Assembly: GCA_016193315.1 (NCBI GenBank)
Contig: JACPSJ010000001.1
Location: forward strand, 727,478 to 791,477
DNA length: 64,000 nucleotides
Source: Candidatus Kerfeldbacteria bacterium
GTDB lineage: Bacteria > Patescibacteriota > Patescibacteriia > SBBC01 > CAIJZX01
Reading direction: 5' to 3'
Shown in pieces: positions 6,739-63,158 of the stretch. Each line of letters opens with the position of its first letter. Within the stretch, counting starts at the first letter, position 1. The position numbers and the translations under genes were made by a program. Under the pieces are notes generated by a model. It saw only the letters and a list, made by a program, of their open reading frames with translations, had not been told where the DNA came from and did not search any database.

Positions 6739-8947
6739 GCTTCACCAGCCCATCTTTGATCGTGGCTTCGAGTTTGTCAACCTCGGCTTTCATTAAGGTC
6801 CGGTCGGGGGATTGAAAGATGAGTTCGAAGGTCAGGCTCTGCTGCTGCCCTTGCTGAAATTGATCGATTTTCCTAATGGTCGTCAGGAGTCCTCCGCCCA
6901 GCCGGCGCAATGTTTCATGAATACTCGGGGCCGATAACCGGCGGGGAATCCAAAGAGAAATATCTCTTTTGACTGACGGAAATTTCGATCGGGCCTGGTA
7001 TTTTTTCGGCCCCCACCCTTGGTTGATGTCGTCGAGATTGAATTCTACCCATTCGAGATCCCGTCCTTTCATTTGGTCGTGTGCGATCGGGCGCAGCAAA
7101 CCCGTCACTCCAAGCGCTTCCTGGAATAACCGTAGGTCCTCTTCAAGCCCAAGACCGCCCCCGGTTTTGTGACATCGCCCAAGGGCCAGAATCCATGGTT
7201 GAAGTTTCATCTCTTTGCCAAACACACGCCCGACCTCAAAAATCCTTGTATCGTGCCCCGCATCCGCGGCGGACATAAGAATACGGCGGATACCGGGTTT
7301 GAGGCTCAGCCGAAGGTATTGCTGCGTCTGATCAAGCGGGTTCGCGACTCTTACGTGTGCGTTGCGGTCTCCGGCATTGGAACTCTCGTCTCCACCGTAA
7401 TACGTATGGGTGATAACCTCAAGAAAACCTAAACGAGCCAGCGTGTCTCTCAGCTGATCCTTCAAGACAAGTGAGAATGGTAATGGTTTGGGGATCGACG
7501 GCGCCGTCGGCCACGACTCCAGAAGATGCTCGTATCCCACCATCCGCCCCACTTCATCCACGAGGTCCTCGGGAACGGTCGCGTCAAGCCGCCACTCCGG
7601 CACCGTGACCTTCCATGACTTCGACCCAGCTACCTTGAAACCAAGTTTGCCTAAGGTGGCTTTGCTTTTCGCGGCGGCAATGTTCGTCCCTAGGCGTTCC
7701 TTGACGTACTTTGGGTTGAAGGTGATGATTTTGGATTTTGACTTCACACCGCCAACCCGGACACTCCCCTGTTCCAACGTTCCGCCGCAAAGTTCAACGA
7801 TGAATGACGATGCAGCTTCGCTCGCTTCCTCCGGCAAACTTTGCCACAGTCCGCGTTCGAACCGTTTTGACGCTTCGGAGACTAAACCAAGCTTCCGCGA
7901 CGTCCGGCGGATCGAGATCGAATCAAAAATAGCCGCTTCGATGATGATGTCCTTGGTCGCATCGGACACCTCCGAATCGCGTCCGCCCATGATCCCGGCC
8001 AAGGCGGTCGGGCCGCGCGGGTCGGCGATGACGAGCATACTCGGATCCAGCCCGCGCGTCTGGGCATCAAGCGTGACGAGTTTCTCACCCACCCGCGCGG
8101 TCCGGACCACAATTCTTCCGTCTGACACTTTGGCGGCGTCGAAGGCATGGAGCGGCTGGCCGTACTCCAGCATGATGTAGTTCGTGGCGTCGACCACGGC
8201 GTTGATCGGCCGCATGCCGGCCGAGCGGAGACGTTGCTGTAACCAAGCGGGTGACGGACCGAGTGTTACGCCGTGGATGACTCGCGCCATGTAAACCGGA
8301 CATTGTTTGGGTGCCAGAACTTGGACCGCCACCGATCGCCCGGCCGGACGTTTGGCTCGGGGCGGTGCCGGTGAGGTTAGTTTTGGAGTCGTTCCGAGTA
8401 TGGTTCCTATTTCCCGCGCCAATCCTCGCACCGACAGCAAATCCGCCCGATTGGCCGGGATGGCCAGGTCGAGAATAACGTCCGACGCCCCGAGCACGCG
8501 CCCCAACGGCGTTCCGACTTTGATCGCGGTATCCAGAACCAGGACCCCGGCATGATTGTATCCTAGTCCAAGTTCATCCTCGGCGCAGATCATACCACCT
8601 GACTGAACGCCACGGATGGTTCGCGATTCGACGATTTGGCCGTTGGCGAGTTTCGCCCCCACCAATGCCACTGGGACCTTTTGGCCAACTGCGATATTCG
8701 GCGCGCCGCAGACGATCTGGCGTGGTCGGTCGCCGGGCTTGGTTACGACCTCGGCCAACTGCAGTTTGTCGGCATTCGGATGCGGCTTGATGGAAACGAT
8801 TTTGCCGACCACAAACTTCTCGAACTGACCGCGTCGATCAATCAGCTGCTCGACTTCCAGCCCGTGCATCATCAACGTCGCCACCAACTTCGGAGTCGGC
8901 GGCAAGCGGGGCAAGAATTCTTTCAGCCAAGAGAGGGGTAAGAGCAT
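6719..8947 (-). CDS. pheT: phenylalanine--tRNA ligase beta subunit
   Basis: 742 aa. N-terminal tRNA-binding OB fold (…KIVSIKPHPNADKLQLAEV…), B3/4 and B5 domains, and a C-terminal anticodon-binding domain. Confidence 0.9.
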   Translation of the reverse strand: MLLPLSWLKEFLPRLPPTPKLVATLMMHGLEVEQLIDRRGQFEKFVVGKIVSIKPHPNADKLQLAEVVTKPGDRPRQIVCGAPNIAVGQKVPVALVGAKLANGQIVESRTIRGVQSGGMICAEDELGLGYNHAGVLVLDTAIKVGTPLGRVLGASDVILDLAIPANRADLLSVRGLAREIGTILGTTPKLTSPAPPRAKRPAGRSVAVQVLAPKQCPVYMARVIHGVTLGPSPAWLQQRLRSAGMRPINAVVDATNYIMLEYGQPLHAFDAAKVSDGRIVVRTARVGEKLVTLDAQTRGLDPSMLVIADPRGPTALAGIMGGRDSEVSDATKDIIIEAAIFDSISIRRTSRKLGLVSEASKRFERGLWQSLPEEASEAASSFIVELCGGTLEQGSVRVGGVKSKSKIITFNPKYVKERLGTNIAAAKSKATLGKLGFKVAGSKSWKVTVPEWRLDATVPEDLVDEVGRMVGYEHLLESWPTAPSIPKPLPFSLVLKDQLRDTLARLGFLEVITHTYYGGDESSNAGDRNAHVRVANPLDQTQQYLRLSLKPGIRRILMSAADAGHDTRIFEVGRVFGKEMKLQPWILALGRCHKTGGGLGLEEDLRLFQEALGVTGLLRPIAHDQMKGRDLEWVEFNLDDINQGWGPKKYQARSKFPSVKRDISLWIPRRLSAPSIHETLRRLGGGLLTTIRKIDQFQQGQQQSLTFELIFQSPDRTLMKAEVDKLEATIKDGLVKLGATIR

Positions 8948-10452: not shown

Positions 10453-11064
10453 TTGACAACGGAAAACAGTCGGCGTAGACCAAAAACAGAAGCCCTTTCC
10501 ATCATCAACCCAAAGGAGGTGATCCTGGTGGTGCGGCTGGCTTCGTCTATTGAAACGCGCCGGTACAAGATGGCGTCGGCGATCGGCTTGGCCATCAGAG
10601 CCACCCAATCCCGCCCCGTCGTCAGGTGCCGCCGATTCCGGTTGCCGGCCTCGTTCCCAGTCGTCGAACGAGTGGACCATTTTGTCCGCCGCTTTGCTCG
10701 GCGGAATGGCATGACCGAGGACAACCTCATCCGGTTCAGCCTAGCCGTGGCCGAGGCGACCACCAACGCCGTCCAGCACGGACGCCAACCAGGACGGATC
10801 CAGTTCCTGTTTCTGGCCGTGGGGTTCTCGGGGCTGCGACATTTCAGTTGCTCGATCGACAACGCACCCCGCCTCAATCGAGCGCGACCAGCCCTGCCGC
10901 GAACCCAGCAGATCCGCCGACCGTTGACCCTTAGTACCGCGCCGCGTGGTCGGGGACGCCGGATCATCTATCAGATGGTGGACGGATTCCTGGCCATTCA
11001 TGTCCGGGCCCGCGGGCACGAATGCCGCCAGGTCGTCCTGACGCTGGATCAAATCGATCCGTAA
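10453..11064 (+). CDS. GHKL-type anti-sigma regulatory factor / serine kinase (RsbW/SpoIIAB-like), possibly degenerate
   Basis: N-box AVAEATTNAVQHG closely resembles RsbW AVSEACTNAVQHA. A G-rich box RGRGRRIIYQMVDGF lies downstream. The likely start is the internal M (MASAIG…). Arg-rich composition lowers confidence. Confidence 0.45.
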   Translation: MTTENSRRRPKTEALSIINPKEVILVVRLASSIETRRYKMASAIGLAIRATQSRPVVRCRRFRLPASFPVVERVDHFVRRFARRNGMTEDNLIRFSLAVAEATTNAVQHGRQPGRIQFLFLAVGFSGLRHFSCSIDNAPRLNRARPALPRTQQIRRPLTLSTAPRGRGRRIIYQMVDGFLAIHVRARGHECRQVVLTLDQIDP

Positions 11065-11150
11065 CCCCTGCCTAGCCGGCGGGGGATTTTTCCGTGGTTG
11101 GCGCCTTGACAACAGACGACCAACAGCGCTAGGTTGTACGGGTTGTTTGC

Positions 11151-11298
11151 GGCGGGGTGCTCGAGAGGATGATGAGATGCCGACTACGCGGGTCGGTAGG
11201 TCCCAGAGCCACGATGCAGAATCTCAAGCTGTGTCCGCAATGCGGAATGCCTCCTTGAGAATCTGGGGCCCATGGGTTCGAATCCCATCCCCGCCGCC
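11151..11298 (+). tRNA. tRNA-like gene with ~115 nt of extra internal structured sequence (isotype unresolved)
   Basis: Perfect 7-bp acceptor GGCGGGG (11151-57) / CCCCGCC (11289-95). Canonical T-arm ATGGG-TTCGAAT-CCCAT directly 5' of the 3' acceptor strand. Discriminator G, then CC. D-arm-like CTCG-AGAGGATGA-TGAG. The interior holds a 6-bp hairpin (gccgac…gtcggt) and a 12-bp hairpin (cagaatctcaag…cttgagaatctg) not explainable by a 76-nt cloverleaf. Confidence 0.3.
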
Positions 11299-11447
11299 TC
11301 GTATGCCCACCAACATCCTGATCACGTTCCTTTAGCGCCTGTCGCTCAGCTTGGAGAGTCACACCTTGCCAAGGTGGTTGCCGGAGTTTTCCACCCCGCA
11401 CCCATCGAGGTGCGGTGGACGTTCCTCTCAGGCGCTTCAACCTGTCA

Positions 11448-11625
11448 GCTCGGGTAGCTTAGCCCGGTAGAGCGTCTGATTCGTAATCAGATGGTCGCCG
11501 GGTCGCGGCGGGTTGAGGAACAAAGCAGATGAACTGCTTCATCTGCGTCCCGACGCGACGGGCGTCGCCATGTTTCGAAGGAACGGCGACGCCCAGGGCC
11601 ATGCCAAATCCGGCCCCGAGCTCCA
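11448..11625 (+). tRNA. tRNA-Thr(CGU) gene interrupted in the T-loop by a ~100-nt insertion
   Basis: Acceptor GCTCGGG (11448-54) pairs perfectly with CCCGAGC (11615-21), followed by discriminator T and encoded CCA. D-arm GCTT-AGCCCGGTA-GAGC. Anticodon arm TCTGA-TTCGTAA-TCAGA (anticodon CGT). Variable loop TGGTC. T-stem 5' strand GCCGG (11497-501). Then ~100 nt of hairpin-rich sequence. Then T-loop remainder CAAAT plus T-stem 3' strand CCGGC (11610-14) abutting the acceptor 3' strand. Confidence 0.5.
11524..11552 (+). repeat. 27-nt hairpin repeat, copy 1 (aagcagatgaactgcttcatctgcgtcc)
   Basis: 9-bp perfect hairpin gcagatgaa/ttcatctgc with loop ctg, inside the tRNA-Thr T-loop insert. Near-identical copy at 34841-34869. 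Both copies are followed by a second hairpin whose loop contains atgYttcgaagga. Confidence 0.5.
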
Positions 11626-11711
11626 AGTCTTACCCCCCATCACTCGATGTGGGATTTTTTTTATCGTCCGAAACTCGCAATCTTTTGGCAGCCGCGCTAC
11701 GCACCGAACCC

Positions 11712-12209
11712 CTATCGACAAATACCTTTAACCTCCATCACCTCAGCGATCAGCGTACGGCGCCGATATATGATTTCATGCTTTTGGATCGAACTGAATG
11801 CCCGCGCGAGGGCGATTTCTGAAACTTCATAGCGAAGCCCCGCGAAGCTTGCGTCACCTTCAATGAGGCTGGCTTTCTTTCGTTGCCACCGCTGTCGACG
11901 CGCCCACCGCAAGAATTTGTAAACCTGCTCGCTGTCTTCTGATTTCACGACATATCCCCAGTAGTGCGTCTGCCAACACGGTCGCGCCCGATACCAAACT
12001 GTCGTTACGCCGCTGAAAGGATTTGACCCAACCCACACATCCTCCCAAAACCACCGTCTGGTCCGTGGTCTGCCGCCGCGAGGATATTGCAAGATATCTA
12101 CACCCGGCCTGGTTTTCCTTTTCAGGCTTCGCGCCTCGGCATCATAACCATTGTGTTTTGCTTCCTCCATGAAACGTATGATTTGCCTGTAGGTCGGATA
12201 CTTGTTCAT
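11712..12209 (-). CDS. hypothetical protein
   Basis: 165-aa ORF (…WFWEDVWVGSNPFSGVTTVWYRARPCWQTHYWGYV…), moderately AT-richer than surroundings. Lies between the interrupted tRNA cluster and the helicase-nuclease. Confidence 0.4.
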   Translation of the reverse strand: MNKYPTYRQIIRFMEEAKHNGYDAEARSLKRKTRPGVDILQYPRGGRPRTRRWFWEDVWVGSNPFSGVTTVWYRARPCWQTHYWGYVVKSEDSEQVYKFLRWARRQRWQRKKASLIEGDASFAGLRYEVSEIALARAFSSIQKHEIIYRRRTLIAEVMEVKGICR

Positions 12210-12215
12210 AAACCC

Positions 12216-15206
12216 TTAGACGGCTCTAAATTCACAGATTTCTCTGTAATCACAAAACCTACAAACCATCGGACTCGGCGTGGCCCGAAAATCGCCAGAC
12301 TGGATTTTCTTGACCGTGCCCCGAATCCAGTCGAGCGTGGTGGCTGAATCCCTGGCTGACGGTTTCATGGTCTTGGCTTCGTTCGCATCGATGAAGTAGT
12401 ATGCCAGTTCTTTCACCTCAGCGTTGAGAATCGATGGGTCTTGCGCCGCTAAAGCGTAGATGAGCAGCTGGTACTTATCGTCTTTTTCAAATTTTTCTTT
12501 CATTTTTCCTGTTTTGTAGTCGACAATCCTTACTTCCCGTTTATGCGCAGATTCGTCTGCCACATTCGTAGATTCGTTATCTGAATTCGTGGTCTCGTAG
12601 TCATCAACCCGGTCAATCTTACCGCTAATCACAAACTGATCGACTTTGAGATTGAATGTTTGCTCCAGCCGAAGCACGTTCGGCATGGCCTTGGTCGTTT
12701 TCTCGTACCACATCGATAACGCATCCTTCCCTTGTTGATAGTACTTTTTGCGTTCCGCTTTCGTCGGATACCATTCGTCGATGAATGATCGATCGTAGAT
12801 TGTCCAAAGTTCCGGTAAGGTGACTAATTCTTTGCTGTCGCCTTTGTTCTTCTGCCGCTCCTTCCAGAGCATGAAGAAGTTGTAGAGCGTTTGATGGATC
12901 GAGGAGCCATACGATAAAACATGACTCCCCTTTTTCGGCACCTGGAGCACGAAGGCGTAGCGGTACTTCCAGGGGCATTCGTTGTAGGTTGCCAGCTTGG
13001 TGAAGCTGAAGCTTTTTTCTCGTTTGGCGTAGGCCGCAAGCTCTTTCTTCTCAGGTGGGGTGGGGCGGAATTGACGATCGGGCGGCGGTCGTTTCCTCGC
13101 GGCGCCGGGCCCAGTGCCGACTTCAGCCGGCGGAGTTAATAATCCCAATTCATACAGAAACGGTGACGGCTTTTTCCGCCGCTGCCCGCCATAGTCTTCG
13201 GCCAGGGTGAAGAACACGCCGTCCCGGGCGCGGGTAATCGCCACATACATCAACCGTCGTTCTTCCTGCACGTGGGCGTCGCCTTGGGGCAGGATTTCTC
13301 GGACCAGGGCATCAGGTACTGGGATCGGATCTTTGCGGTCCAGGCCGGGAAAACGCTGCTCCACGACGTTGCCGATGAACACATAAGGAAACTCCAGCCC
13401 TTTGGCCGAGTGGATGGTCATGATTTTGATGGTGTCCGGACTCGATGTTCCCAAATCATGCTCGAGACCGCCGCTATCGCCGGATTCCGTAACATGGTCG
13501 ATGTACCGCAAGAATGTTTTGACCGTCGCCGGACGCTCGCCGTGTTGGAAGATCTCAATGAGTTTGAACACTTGTCTCAGCAGCGCGACCTGCTGCTGAG
13601 ACTGAACCGATTCTTCTTTCGTGATCGACTGTAAATAGCCCGAGTCGTTGAGGAAATGGAGTAACACTTCGCCGACGGGCTTCGTGTTCGCCAGTTCGGT
13701 ATGCTTGGCCACTAGCTGCTTCAACCTGGCGATCCCGTGGCGACTTGCGTCGCTGCAGGCTACATCATCGTGCTGCAGCTGTTCGAACAACGACCGCGTT
13801 TTCTTCTTGGCTCGGTACGACAGTTCAACCACATCGCCGTGGTCAATACCCCAGATGGGCATGGCCAGGACCCGATAGAGTGCGGCGTTCTCGTGGTAGT
13901 TGTCGAGTAGTCGCAGATAGGCCAGCACGTCCAGCACCAGCGGCTTGGTAAACAACCCGCGGGCCGCCAGGAAGACGTAAGGCCAGCCGCGGCGTTCAAA
14001 CTCATTGACAAACATTTGGGCATGGTCATTCGCCCGCACGAGAACACAAAAAGAATCCCAGCCTAAACCCTTATTCCTTAACCGTAAACCCTCAATCTTC
14101 TCCGCTGCTCCACGCGCTTCAGCTTCTTGGGTATCAACACGAATGTCGCCAATCTCACCCTTTCCTTCACGCTGGGCTTTGAGTTTCTTCACCACCGCGG
14201 TGCCATCCACGAGTTGTTGTTTTGCCTCGAGCCGATCAGGATTGTTTTTTTGGATGAAGGCATGAGCTACATCGAGGATTGACTGTTTCGTCCGGTAGTT
14301 CTTGGTTAAGACAACCACCCTTGACTCCGGGAAATCTTTCTTGAACCCCAAGATGTTGGAGACTGACGCCCCGCGGAACTTATAAATCGACTGGTCATCG
14401 TCACCCACGACGGTCAAGTTATTCCTCGCTGCACCAATTAACTTAATCAACTCATACTGCGCCCAGTTCGTGTCCTGAAATTCGTCGACGAGAACATACT
14501 GAAATTGCTGCTGATATTTTTGGAGAATGGCCGGGCGCCCACGCAGCAACCGCAAGCAGTACAAGATCAAGTCGCCAAAATCGAGGGCGTTGCTGTCCAG
14601 CAGCAGTTGGTTGTACCGTTCGTAGGCCTTAGCTAGTTCCAAAACTCGATCCGCCTCGGCCCGGTCAGCCGTCAATCCCTTTTTGCCCTTGGCCGCTGAT
14701 TTAGCGTACTTCAAGTATTCGGACGGCGAAATATCTTCGTCTTTGAGGCGCGAGAAGTGTTTCACAAGCGCGGAAATAAACTTTGTCGGGTTGCCAAGTG
14801 GTCGGTAATAATCCAGGGCGAATGCATCAAGATGTTCACGGATCAACAGCCACTGGTCGGTTTGCGACAATAGCTTAAAATCGTTTGATAAACCGATATC
14901 GAGCGCGTGCGCCTGCAGCAGTCGCTGCCCGAAACTGTGAAACGTCATGACCCACAAGTCGAGGTAACCGAACGGCAAAATCCGTTCCACCCGATCTTGC
15001 ATTTCGCCGGCAGCTTTGTCAGTAAAGGTCAGGGCTAAGATGCTATCCGACGGCACATGTTCATTCATAATCAAATGCGCCAGCCGTTCGGTAATAACGG
15101 TGGTTTTCCCAGTTCCAGCCCCGGCGACGATCAATAAGGGCCCGCGGCCGTGCGTGATGGCGGCTTGTTGTTCTTTATTTACTTTTTCAGGAATGACGCC
15201 GGGCAT
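12216..15206 (-). CDS. UvrD/PcrA-family SF1 helicase fused to C-terminal PD-(D/E)XK RecB/Cas4-type nuclease domain (AddA/RecB-like single-chain helicase-nuclease)
   Basis: Walker A AGAGTGKTT and UvrD motifs (TFTDKAAGEM, VLVDEFQDTN, VGDDDQSIYKFRGA, TIHSAKGLEF). C-terminal nuclease core with a Cys cluster (CPWKYRYAFV… and CRFCDYREICEFRAV at the extreme C-terminus) typical of RecB-family/Cas4 Fe-S nucleases. Contains the ETTNSDNESTN repeat insert. Confidence 0.85.
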   Translation of the reverse strand: MPGVIPEKVNKEQQAAITHGRGPLLIVAGAGTGKTTVITERLAHLIMNEHVPSDSILALTFTDKAAGEMQDRVERILPFGYLDLWVMTFHSFGQRLLQAHALDIGLSNDFKLLSQTDQWLLIREHLDAFALDYYRPLGNPTKFISALVKHFSRLKDEDISPSEYLKYAKSAAKGKKGLTADRAEADRVLELAKAYERYNQLLLDSNALDFGDLILYCLRLLRGRPAILQKYQQQFQYVLVDEFQDTNWAQYELIKLIGAARNNLTVVGDDDQSIYKFRGASVSNILGFKKDFPESRVVVLTKNYRTKQSILDVAHAFIQKNNPDRLEAKQQLVDGTAVVKKLKAQREGKGEIGDIRVDTQEAEARGAAEKIEGLRLRNKGLGWDSFCVLVRANDHAQMFVNEFERRGWPYVFLAARGLFTKPLVLDVLAYLRLLDNYHENAALYRVLAMPIWGIDHGDVVELSYRAKKKTRSLFEQLQHDDVACSDASRHGIARLKQLVAKHTELANTKPVGEVLLHFLNDSGYLQSITKEESVQSQQQVALLRQVFKLIEIFQHGERPATVKTFLRYIDHVTESGDSGGLEHDLGTSSPDTIKIMTIHSAKGLEFPYVFIGNVVEQRFPGLDRKDPIPVPDALVREILPQGDAHVQEERRLMYVAITRARDGVFFTLAEDYGGQRRKKPSPFLYELGLLTPPAEVGTGPGAARKRPPPDRQFRPTPPEKKELAAYAKREKSFSFTKLATYNECPWKYRYAFVLQVPKKGSHVLSYGSSIHQTLYNFFMLWKERQKNKGDSKELVTLPELWTIYDRSFIDEWYPTKAERKKYYQQGKDALSMWYEKTTKAMPNVLRLEQTFNLKVDQFVISGKIDRVDDYETTNSDNESTNVADESAHKREVRIVDYKTGKMKEKFEKDDKYQLLIYALAAQDPSILNAEVKELAYYFIDANEAKTMKPSARDSATTLDWIRGTVKKIQSGDFRATPSPMVCRFCDYREICEFRAV

Positions 15207-34492: not shown

Positions 34493-34554
34493 GGTTGTTG
34501 GTCTTACTGAAAACTAGTCTAGCATATTTAGCTACTTTCCCCTAAGGCCGCGGC

Positions 34555-34930
34555 GAGCGATCGGGAGCCGCGACAGAAAAATACCTGGTCGCGAGGAACG
34601 TTTGCAAGACTGGGTCTGGTGGGGTCGGGGCGGCATTACGCGGAGCGGGATAGCGAGTAAATTGCTTTACTCGCGGCCGCCGAGACGGGCCGAGCTCTGT
34701 TTCGGAGGAATAGCGAGGCCCAAGAGGCAACGAGCAAACGGACGATCGACACACAAGGGAAGGGAGGCAGTCCCGACCGCGAAAGCGCGTCGGGACGGTC
34801 GGAACGGGCCGTAGACCGGCAGCCGAAGGCCAAGCAGATGAACTGCTTCATGTGCGTCCGGTCGGAGGTGGGCCGGCCGATGCTTCGAAGGAGCCGGACG
34901 GCTCAGGGATACCATCGGTTTCCCTCCGAG
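34555..34930. ncRNA. candidate structured non-coding RNA (unclassified)
   Basis: ~390 nt with no convincing ORF between two co-oriented genes. Very GC-rich with many perfect hairpins (e.g. gtcccgaccgcgaaagcgcgtcgggac; cgcgagtaaattgctttactcgcg). Contains copy 2 of the 27-nt hairpin repeat. Confidence 0.25.
34841..34869 (+). repeat. 27-nt hairpin repeat, copy 2 (aagcagatgaactgcttcatgtgcgtcc)
   Basis: 27/28 identity with 11524-11552. Followed by a second hairpin with loop atgcttcgaagga, as in copy 1. Confidence 0.5.
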
Positions 34931-34931
34931 A

Positions 34932-60056: not shown

Positions 60057-60460
60057 GGGGATGTACAACAGTTGATCGATCGTTGACAGTCCATCGCGCT
60101 CATGCCGACACGCCCACGCCGTCGTTACTGTGTGGGAACATGAGAAGTGCCAATACACTTTTCAGCAGGCTGAAGACCGCGGTCGCTTCGGCGTTCCGCG
60201 CGCCTTTGCTTGCGCCTGCCTTTGCCTAAACAGTAAGGGCCATCCGTCCGGTTGACTCCGACTAGACCGATCGCGGGTGTCACCTCAGTCGGACCAGTGG
60301 TGAAACGTTCAGACTCATCACCGCGTACCTTCTGAACACCGTCGTCAGGATTCTTGTCCGTTCTTGACCTGATGGCGCGTACTGAGAACGGGCTGAGCAT
60401 GGAAGCCAGCGTGATGGATGGTCCGTCGAGACGCGGGTGCAAGACCCGCCATCTCCACCA
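60057..60460 (+). ncRNA. ssrA: tmRNA (transfer-messenger RNA)
   Basis: 3' end GCGGG-TGCAAGA-CCCGC (T-arm) + CATCTCC + A + CCA (60458-60). 5' GGGGATG forms a 7-bp acceptor with G3:U70 wobble. 5' uugacaguccauc pairs with gauggUccguc just before the T-arm (helix 2). In-frame Ala-rich tag candidate …AFRAPLLAPAFA-stop (stop at ~60227-29). smpB lies 600 nt upstream. Confidence 0.7.
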
Positions 60461-62908: not shown

Positions 62909-63083
62909 ACGGGTATCCAAAGACAGCTTACAGCCTTGTGGCTGAGGGTTGTTTGTAGTGGGCCCGAACCCGCACCAGGCCCTTGACTTGATCGGGGGTG
63001 CGCAGCAATCTCTCCCCCGTGACCCCGTATGGTTCTCGCTTCGCTCGAACCATGGGGCAGGCAAGAGGGCTCGTTTCGCTCTG

Positions 63084-63158
63084 CGGACCCAAGGGGATTT
63101 GAACCCCTGATCTTCTCCGTGACAGGGAGACGTGTTAACCGGGCTACACTATGGGTCC
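63084..63158 (-). tRNA. tRNA-Asp(GUC)
   Basis: Minus strand: GGACCCA-TA-GTGT-AGCCCGGTTA-ACAC-G-TCTCC-CTGTCAC-GGAGA-AGATC-AGGGG-TTCAAAT-CCCCT-TGGGTCC-G. CCA not encoded. Coordinates ±2. Confidence 0.7.

Follow-up and report, generated by a model that had tools for sequence, protein, structure and literature searches.

In the 64-kb stretch of Kerfeldbacteria DNA analyzed here (the window, numbered from its first nucleotide), the gene for tRNA-Thr(CGU) is split in its T-loop by a 101-nt insert, W1, which is a copy of a structured element that we call hp1. The hp1 elements are an uncatalogued family in CPR/Patescibacteria genomes and groundwater-type metagenome contigs, undescribed as far as Rfam 15 and the literature that we searched show, and the split gene itself is a new case. 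Our preferred reading, which we judge about evenly balanced between right and wrong, is that an hp1 unit, inserted or rearranged aberrantly at positions 55/56, has turned the gene into a transcribed 178-nt chimera that has no elbow and yields no working tRNA.

A tRNA-Thr(CGU) gene interrupted between T-loop positions 55 and 56

Read directly from the sequence, all parts of a tRNA-Thr(CGU), the encoded CCA included, lie within 11448-11625 (+):

11448-11503 (+): tRNA-Thr 5′ part, positions 1-55, ending in G-T (loop positions 54-55)
11448-11454 (+): acceptor 5′ strand GCTCGGG, pairing over 7 bp with CCCGAGC at 11615-11621
11457-11473 (+): D-arm, GCTT/AGCCCGGTA/GAGC
11475-11491 (+): anticodon arm, TCTGA/TTCGTAA/TCAGA, with anticodon CGT at 11482-11484
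11492-11496 (+): variable loop, TGGTC
11497-11501 (+): T-stem 5′ strand GCCGG, pairing with CCGGC at 11610-11614
11504-11604 (+): W1 insert, 101 nt, hp1 family copy, between T-loop positions 55 and 56
11605-11625 (+): tRNA-Thr 3′ part, CAAAT (56-60), CCGGC, CCCGAGC, T, CCA
11622 (+): discriminator T, followed by CCA at 11623-11625

The interrupted T-loop consists of G-T (11502-11503), the 101 nt of the insert (11504-11604) and CAAAT (11605-11609). With its 7-bp acceptor, D-arm, anticodon arm with U33 and a purine at position 37, and 5-bp T-stem, the gene has the cloverleaf of a tRNA-Thr, including the G1:C72 and C2:G71 pairs that we take to be identity elements for ThrRS; what it lacks is the 7-nt T-loop (T54-Psi55-C56-R57-A58) that forms the elbow with the D-loop. 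An earlier note on this DNA had listed the canonical tRNA parts in the right order, and all of them were found by direct reading and by ARAGORN after excision. The note had also placed an insert of about 100 nt at 11503-11603 and let the T-loop start with T: the length holds (101 nt), the bounds are off by one (11504-11604), and the first base of the T-loop, position 54, reads G. With G at this position, the canonical TTCAAAT loop is irrecoverable by any precise excision.

ARAGORN, which the earlier note had proposed as a check, finds no tRNA at 11448-11625 as the sequence stands. After in-silico deletion it calls tRNA-Thr(cgt), and it does so for dozens of deletions of ~95-105 nt centered on the insert, which bears out the claim of a tRNA-Thr(CGU) interrupted in the T-loop. 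The native split gene also falls below the gathering score of the Rfam tRNA model, which is 29, and the 5′ part by itself (11448-11505) comes just below that score with 26.1 bits (E = 0.007, 1.2 kb searched). The 178-nt sequence folds at −96.1 kcal/mol (z = −6.5 relative to shuffled sequences), with the acceptor stem closed around two strong hairpin domains.

That the native gene is passed over both by ARAGORN and, at the gathering score, by Rfam is what one would expect if the tRNA halves were unrelated fragments, joined by chance resemblance or in a chimeric assembly. We find this scarcely credible: the halves are complementary over 7 + 5 bp in the right order and at the right spacing, excision yields tRNA-Thr(cgt), and relatives carry an uninterrupted tRNA-Thr(cgt) at the syntenic site (see below). 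Logan assemblies of other runs (L001 and L002) are 100% identical across the tRNA halves and the insert, and the presence of the same sequence in independent assemblies rules out an assembly artefact.

The host locus and its relatives

The locus is ordinary chromosome: a helicase gene adjoins the split gene, and the other neighbors are pheS, pheT and the genes for a DUF5680 protein and a HATPase_c_2 protein. The helicase is 100% identical to a protein from a Candidatus Kerfeldbacteria MAG. Between a promoter-like site and a terminator lie three tRNA-like genes, of which the split gene is the third:

11106-11135 (+): putative promoter of the tRNA operon, TTGACA, 18-nt spacer, TAGGTT, read by eye
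11151-11299: tRNA-like gene A
11335-11436: tRNA-like gene B
11636-11663 (+): intrinsic terminator closing the operon, from the terminator scan
12216-15206 (−): UvrD/PD-(D/E)XK helicase

The putative promoter was not called in the consensus scan because its −10 box is weak; TTGACA-type −35 boxes stand at the equivalent place before the syntenic tRNA operons of the relatives L020, L017 and L018. Genes A and B, like genes in the operons of the relatives, are tRNA-like, with acceptor stems that are perfect and loops that are odd. A deletion scan of gene A was uninformative, as every in-silico deletion gave some ARAGORN call. A T-arm fragment at 11271-11288 had raised the idea of an att site or tmRNA island; the idea was dropped, the fragment being part of gene A.

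The helicase-pheST synteny is conserved in relatives, with helicase identities of 73-77%. At the syntenic site L017 and L020 have a canonical, uninterrupted tRNA-Thr(cgt), L018 has a tRNA-Thr with a normal T-arm, an uninterrupted T-loop and a 12-nt anticodon loop, and L019, L021 and L022 have no tRNA. The insert is absent from the syntenic tRNA-Thr genes, and the hp1 element was not found in 85 kb of the relatives' sequence. Since the syntenic tRNA-Thr of relatives is uninterrupted, the insert is a derived state of this lineage.

Structure of the insert

Minimum-free-energy folds of the insert agree with the two strong hairpins described in the earlier note and resolve them as follows:

11502-11559 (+): helix P1, in which GTCGCGGCGGG (11502-11512) pairs with CCCGACGCGAC (11549-11559)
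11513-11523 (+): loop J1, enclosed by P1
11524-11547 (+): hp1, enclosed by P1, stem GCAGATGAA/TTCATCTGC, loop CTGC
11560-11594 (+): hairpin P2, GGGCGTCGCC / AU bulge / GUUUC-GAA-GGAAC / GGCGACGCCC
11597-11605 (+): mini-hairpin GGC-CAU-GCC, ending with C56 of the T-loop; here the element has its right-hand junction

Of the two junctions with the tRNA, the 5′ one is hidden within P1 and the 3′ one within the 3-bp mini-hairpin, and the two regions are not complementary to each other. A small hairpin equivalent to GGC-CAU-GCC, ending at a tRNA 3′ fragment, is present in related copies. A small ORF starting in hp1 (MNCFIC...) was rejected as a gene: W1 and W2 (see below) differ by a frameshift, W3 has no ATG, and the copy in L009 has an early stop, past which nucleotide conservation runs on. 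A weak resemblance between this ORF and the beginning of Microbacterium phage gene 233 (E = 0.01) was judged to be chance.

The compact conserved fold at a defined position, 55/56, together with intact exons, an encoded CCA and an intact transcription unit, would suit a small T-loop intron, removed by self-cleavage or by host RNases and ligation (e.g. by RtcB) to give a working tRNA-Thr(CGU). Bulge-helix-bulge and ribozyme motifs, which the earlier note had suggested looking for, are absent from the folds and from the Rfam matches: no bulge-helix-bulge could be drawn across the junctions, and Rfam at E up to 10 gave no match to group I or II introns or to known self-cleaving ribozymes over 10900-12100. 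G54 would bar a canonical T-loop after any excision, and the other family members listed sit where splicing is unneeded. We know of no archaeal splicing endonuclease in bacteria. Introns are unusually abundant in Patescibacteria, but the bacterial tRNA introns described so far are group I or II, and those surveyed in Patescibacteria are group I introns of 184-894 bp in the anticodon loop (PMC13011429), from which the insert, with its 101 nt at 55/56, departs both in placement and in length. We regard a small intron as quite improbable.

Two further copies in the window

Two more copies of the element lie in tandem elsewhere in the window:

34833-34907 (+): W2, second copy, from repeat family D2, alignment and R1 (89.1 bits)
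34652-34724 (+): W3, third, diverged copy, from an nhmmer hint, alignment and R1 (86.3 bits)

R1, a covariance model of hp1 and P2, was run unfiltered over the whole 64-kb window and finds exactly three copies: W1 with 98.5 bits over 11524-11597, and W2 and W3 with 89.1 and 86.3 bits; nothing in the rest of the window scores above ~11 bits. The sequence 3′ of W2 resembles a tRNA 3′ quarter (CGGTTTCCCTCCGAGACTACCA), and the hp1 stem of W3 is GCGAGTAAA/TTTACTCGC. Covariation among the three copies is of the RNA type and belongs to the tRNA strand: 94% of cells pair, against ~40% with the partners slid, and compensatory changes on both sides are seen at 9 of 24 base pairs, with four double changes in hp1 of W3 and five such pairs in P2. 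G:U pairs among W1-W3 are confined to the + strand.

The hp1 family outside the window

An exact hp1 20-mer matched four CPR genomes in the GTDB species set, and the carriers include Parcubacteria L007, Kerfeldbacteria L013 and the MAG L009; in L007 and L009 the element starts at the last bases of tRNA-Glu. An association with oriC, suggested by DnaA boxes close to the copy in L013, was rejected, as the window has neither box enrichment nor a skew switch. The exact hp1 23-mer has no match in the metagenome collection, a null that is misleading because the hp1 stem covaries, as W3 shows. With a degenerate pattern, AGCRRRTRAAYTGCTTYAYBYGCG, which does not impose stem pairing, at least 120 metagenome contigs were matched. 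The search for further copies that the earlier note had called for thus gave two more in the window and at least 129 matches in metagenome contigs.

A fully complementary 9-bp stem is found in 122 of the 129 matches listed. Counted as distinct hp1 variants among these listed matches, 20 of 26 are fully paired, where 8.5 are expected with the 3′ halves shuffled, and four stem positions alternate between A:T and G:C across the variants. The family can be defined by hp1 (AGC-N6-AA-YUGC-UU-N6-GCG, with a 9-bp stem), a 12-nt arm, P2, a small terminal hairpin and a T-loop junction to the tRNA 3′ quarter.

Neither the exact nor the degenerate hp1 pattern has a match in the viral contig collections, and the phage and plasmid collections gave chance-level matches only. 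Rfam 15, searched with permissive thresholds over both window loci and 24 related loci, has no family that covers the units; its matches in these loci are to tRNA, tmRNA and rRNA and to one unrelated LOOT RNA. We found no matching description in the literature on T-loop introns, MITEs in tRNAs, and tRNA-linked repeats or motifs in CPR. No protein family recurs within 2.5-3 kb of the ~120 hp1 copies examined among the matches listed, and this holds for integrases as well.

Association with tRNA genes and anatomy of the units

ARAGORN places a tRNA or tmRNA no more than 300 nt away from 100 of the 129 matches listed; the strand is the same in every case, and the tRNA is upstream in nearly all. 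The tRNA ends 5-57 nt upstream of hp1 in 74 of the matches listed, which between them involve 16 amino-acid isotypes and one tmRNA (L142). Fifty of these 74 listed matches have an exact 10-25-nt repeat of the tRNA 3′ end after the element, and a longer comparison window extends the repeats among the matches listed to as much as 32 nt. Because of this second copy of its 3′ end the tRNA stays whole. In the printed sequences of the listed matches the repeat starts mostly inside the T-loop, commonest at C56. As a rule, the element passes on its right into the last quarter of a tRNA, inside the T-loop (~positions 55-57); the T-loop, which the earlier note had taken for the junction, is where the family's junction with tRNA sequence lies, with C56 as its mode.

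The sequences on either side of hp1 also relate to the neighboring tRNA: among the 74 listed matches, 64 have at least 6 nt of complementarity between the segment after hp1 and the 3′ side of the T-arm, and 44 have a segment before hp1 that is complementary to the acceptor 3′ strand. The usual unit runs from an intact tRNA through a spacer (often with a terminator-like hairpin) and a copy of the acceptor 5′ strand to hp1, continues with a duplicate T-stem 5′ strand and the T-loop's complement, 'AG' and P2 (often with an AUG-type bulge), and ends with a small hairpin or a longer third stem, followed by the direct repeat of the tRNA 3′ end. GGUCG/UGACC closes the longer third stem (P3), and a G:U recurs in the basal stem of P3. 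In a second unit type (L007-like) the element stands 11-12 nt after the tRNA, has neither arms nor repeat, and forms a helix P1 around hp1. Tandem units, two or three, occur on several contigs among the matches listed, and orthologous tRNA-Gln(ttg) loci retain the unit and differ in their variant of the hp1 stem.

On the tRNA strand, the 90 nt that follow hp1 fold better by 3.5 kcal/mol than on its complement. This advantage is seen in 81 of 108 distinct units among the matches listed (p = 1.5e-8), and control segments are unbiased; the fold is thus selected in RNA or in that single DNA strand.

A small element that targets the T-loop was among the explanations in the earlier note, which thought of an IS200/IS605 derivative or another MITE. 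A repeated structured element with a T-loop junction is indeed what we find, but the IS200/IS605 derivation is not supported: tblastn with an IS200 TnpA found no Y1 transposase in the window and no homologue in the other loci among L001-L016. Could the units still be a PATE of IS200/IS605, or a classical MITE with terminal inverted repeats, served by a transposase encoded elsewhere? Their size of ~100 nt, two hairpins and multiple copies would fit, and an IS200-type TnpA does lie 600 nt from a weak copy in L008. That IS200, however, has end hairpins of its own (CCTGCRGCAGAGACYGCAGGG), unrelated to the hp1 element; hp1 and P2 are unlike each other, the element has no terminal inverted repeats, and no transposase recurs near the ~120 copies examined among those listed. 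IS605 insertions produce no target duplication and DDE transposons produce duplications of 2-14 bp, and repeats of the tRNA 3′ end of 10-32 nt are unlike either outcome. We rejected the PATE for these dissimilar hairpins, the missing TnpA in the window and the unrelated IS200 ends in L008, and hold either version to be very improbable.

The window copy compared with the family

W1 belongs to the family by its R1 score, by alignment of its modules and by its junction at C56. It aligns module by module with L127, L037, L071, L137 and L139; the order common to all six is hp1, the 12-nt arm, P2 (opening with GGG and closing with CCC) and AGG plus the small hairpin, and the right end that they share consists of the T-loop remainder, the T-stem 3′ strand and the acceptor 3′ strand. 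The right junction of W1, GC followed by C56-AAAT, is the family's modal junction.

The left side is different. Here hp1 is preceded by 20 nt and by T55 of a full tRNA-Thr 5′ part, and the first copy of the tRNA 3′ end is missing. Where 50 of the 74 members listed have a direct repeat of the tRNA 3′ end, W1 has a single 3′ end, and without a second one the tRNA-Thr gene is split. Its 12-nt arm (CCCGACGCGAC) pairs with the 11 nt on the left (P1) and not with the T-arm of tRNA-Thr. Among the 54 hp1 matches listed that have no tRNA just upstream, in-silico excision yields a tRNA from W1 only, so that the split gene is an exception in its family.

Interpretation

On our preferred reading, the hp1 element would be non-autonomous and would insert, or be duplicated, specifically at the conserved T-loop. 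Transcription from the promoter of the tRNA operon to its terminator would give a 178-nt chimeric RNA with tRNA-like acceptor, D, anticodon and T stems, and with three helices in place of the T-loop. Having G54 and no T-loop/D-loop elbow, such a chimera would probably not work as a tRNA, and ACG codons would then be read by another tRNA-Thr from elsewhere in the genome, if we assume redundancy beyond the 64 kb seen here.

Several observations speak against a simple disruption. The tRNA parts are flawless except for G54, the CCA is encoded, and promoter and terminator look intact, whereas a long-dead pseudogene should show decay. The element is under selection at the RNA level, as seen in the covariation, the fold bias toward the tRNA strand and the recurring G:U at the base of P3, so it could be an RNA with a function and not selfish DNA. 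Its surroundings show no linked gene for a transposase, integrase or reverse transcriptase. In many copies, moreover, the arms flanking hp1 are complementary to the neighboring tRNA 3′ end, which a simple insertion does not account for; this complementarity might serve to recognize the tRNA 3′ quarter in a guide-like way, might form a tRNA-like minihelix with the repeat, or might stem from copying of the target in both orientations. Flawless exons and RNA-level selection leave real weight both with the small intron discussed above and with a functional chimera.

In the latter case hp1 units would be small tRNA-like RNA genes ending in a tRNA 3′ quarter, and the 178-nt RNA would be the product itself, its acceptor and T stems providing for processing by RNase P, RNase Z and the CCA-adding enzyme and for stability. 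The short arms flanking hp1 would be the 5′ partner at most loci, a place taken in the window by the 5′ three-quarters of tRNA-Thr. This would account for the RNA-type covariation and strand asymmetry and for the perfect preservation of the window gene's tRNA parts; in the arm-bearing (type-2) copies, the acceptor 5′ and T-stem 5′ strands are reproduced around hp1, so that an acceptor/T minihelix with the downstream repeat is possible, and retention of the unit at orthologous tRNA-Gln(ttg) loci suggests that it is kept over the long term. The tRNA-like genes A and B and those in the operons of relatives, with their perfect acceptor stems and odd loops, point the same way. Many copies, however, follow the terminator-like hairpin of a tRNA with no space for a promoter of their own, and units are attached to some tRNAs only, the tRNA-Asp and tmRNA of the window having none. 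Tandem amplification and presence or absence at orthologous tRNAs look more like selfish DNA, the arrangement in the window is unique among the ~130 copies listed, and no function can be named. A functional chimera seems to us unlikely, if well worth keeping in view.

More broadly, we entertain, with our judgment leaning against it, that CPR bacteria harbor, in the hp1 units, an RNA-based genetic element of a new class, either a small mobile RNA or a family of tRNA-like RNAs. A mobile RNA of this kind would resemble an intron or retro-element, finding the tRNA 3′ quarter by means of the arms flanking hp1 and entering the T-loop at 55/56; in the tRNA-like version, each RNA would be built on the acceptor/T minihelix of the neighboring tRNA. 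If such a class exists, the window gene would be the first unit nested in a full tRNA, and either a T-loop intron or a 'tRNA-scaffolded' RNA.

This tRNA-Thr gene is missed by standard tools, and tRNA counts feed estimates of completeness and decoding in CPR. Behind the insert stands an abundant structured motif, with at least 129 copies and covarying stems, tied to the T-loop and 3′ end of 16 isotypes and a tmRNA. It may be a protein-less element that lands on the most conserved tRNA sequence or, alternatively, may represent functional tRNA-derived RNAs in organisms with minimal RNA-processing machinery. Splicing of W1, if it occurs, would make it a bacterial tRNA intron new both in kind and in position.

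Comparison with known systems

The closest known system to hp1 units is that of integrative elements with an att site in the T-loop, such as tyrosine-integrase islands and prophages. A 'T-loop sublocation' for integrative elements in tRNA and tmRNA genes was reportedly described by Williams in 2002. Like these elements, hp1 units have their junction within the T-loop and leave the tRNA whole by supplying a 3′ end; the displaced 3′ fragment forms a direct repeat, and a tmRNA can be the target too (L142). Unlike them, hp1 units are ~100-200 nt long, have no integrase nearby and are selected as a folded RNA of the tRNA strand; hp1 is flanked by inverted copies of the tRNA 3′ end, the units go with 16 isotypes and not with one, and W1 has no repeat.

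Small structured bacterial repeats, among them the Rickettsia palindromic elements, Correia/NEMIS, REP/BIME and BOX/RUP, can land inside functional genes. With Rickettsia palindromic elements, Correia, REP and BOX the hp1 elements share a length of ~100 nt, hairpins, multiple copies, absence of a protein, occurrence in reduced genomes and occasional tolerance within genes. They differ in being strictly at tRNA 3′ ends with a junction in the T-loop, in having no terminal inverted repeats, and in that their copies have diverged with compensatory changes and are not near-identical bursts.

Archaeal non-canonical tRNA introns, which have a bulge-helix-bulge, can occur in the T-loop, and like them W1 is short and lies at a non-anticodon position of an otherwise perfect tRNA; unlike them, it has no bulge-helix-bulge, its host is a bacterium, and its family is found mostly outside tRNAs. 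With the group I tRNA introns of Patescibacteria it has in common the phylum and an interrupted tRNA gene that standard tools miss, whereas those introns are ribozymes of 184-894 bp in the anticodon loop and W1 is 101 nt, sits in the T-loop and has no group I signal (PMC13011429).

W1 resembles the intervening sequences of bacterial 23S rRNA as well, in that a conserved RNA hairpin carries a helical insertion of ~100 nt at its tip. Such sequences are cut out by RNase III without re-ligation and leave a fragmented but functional RNA; to our knowledge, none of this type has been described for tRNAs. In architecture the two differ: an intervening sequence forms one long stem from its own ends, whereas W1 forms two hairpins side by side.

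tRNA-like genes of the operon in the window and in related Kerfeldbacteria

The split tRNA-Thr(CGU), which holds one copy of the structured hp1 repeat in its T-loop, shares its operon with two other tRNA-like genes:

11151-11299, plus strand: tRNA-like gene A, the first gene of the operon
11335-11436, plus strand: tRNA-like gene B

In gene A (~149 nt) the acceptor GGCGGGG/CCCCGCC is perfect over 7-9 bp, the D-arm is class-II-like, the T-arm (ATGGGTTCGAATCCCAT) is canonical and position 73 is G73. The gene also has an extra arm of ~70 nt and a non-canonical 'anticodon' hairpin with the loop UACGCGG. The equivalent position in the relative L020 is occupied by a tRNA-Arg(TCG), to which the T-arm/acceptor region of gene A shows a 95% match across 21 nt. 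Gene B, called by neither ARAGORN nor Rfam, resembles tRNA-Gly(GCC) in its 5' two-thirds (anticodon loop TTGCCAA) and has a perfect acceptor of 7 bp. Its T-stem, GGAG(T)/(C)CTCT, is accompanied by a T-loop region of 36 nt containing the hairpin CCACCCCGCACC/GGTGCGGTGG, making gene B the second gene of the operon, besides the split tRNA-Thr, with an expanded T-loop.

Aberrant tRNA-like genes are also found in the syntenic tRNA operons of three related Kerfeldbacteria loci:

L018 8990-9560, minus strand
L020 9128-9247, minus strand
L017 3665-3770, minus strand

Their acceptor stems are perfect. The L018 'tRNA-Thr', for example, has an anticodon loop of 12 nt. Other oddities in these three operons include a 27-nt D-loop, a 5-nt T-loop, a 'tRNA-???' (ctaa) whose anticodon loop measures 8 nt, and long tRNA-like RNAs, 120-140 nt in size.

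hp1 units in tandem

The two other hp1 copies of the window, W2 and the diverged W3, lie in a single region:

34493-34931, plus strand: tandem W3 and W2, 439 nt, intergenic, flanked by two minus-strand genes

W3 and W2 are 181 nt apart, and this region yielded no tRNA, promoter or terminator calls. Downstream of W2 comes CGGTTTCCCTCCGAGACTACCA, which resembles the 3' quarter of a tRNA in degenerate form, CCA included. Two or three tandem units per single tRNA occur in seven metagenome contigs (L037, L137, L031, L085, L118, L130 and L051); here the units are located behind the tRNA with a period of ~120-235 nt, each terminating in a copy of this one tRNA's 3' end.

Neighbours of hp1 copies and association with tmRNA

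One MAG contig, L008, carries a weak hp1 copy together with two elements that we judge to be unrelated to it:

L008 2077-2195, plus strand: LOOT RNA (Rfam RF03000, 76 bits)
L008 4825-5250, minus strand: IS200-type TnpA, which has end hairpins of its own

In L013, a DnaA-box-like cluster lies ~250 nt upstream of a Kerfeldbacteria hp1 copy:

L013 about 7480-7620, minus strand: TTTTCCACA (twice) and TTGTCCACA

The cluster may be an oriC; within the window, hp1 copies have no DnaA-box/oriC association.

Two RNA genes of the window are without an hp1 unit:

60057-60460, plus strand: standard one-piece tmRNA
63083-63158, minus strand: tRNA-Asp(GTC)

A tmRNA gene (tag ANYSPNYAYA*) is followed by an hp1 unit in L142:

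L142 3275-3298, plus strand: hp1 unit, 45 nt past the tmRNA gene

Downstream of this unit the 3' end of the tmRNA is repeated over 18 nt; the hp1 family thus uses the tRNA-like domain of tmRNA as well.
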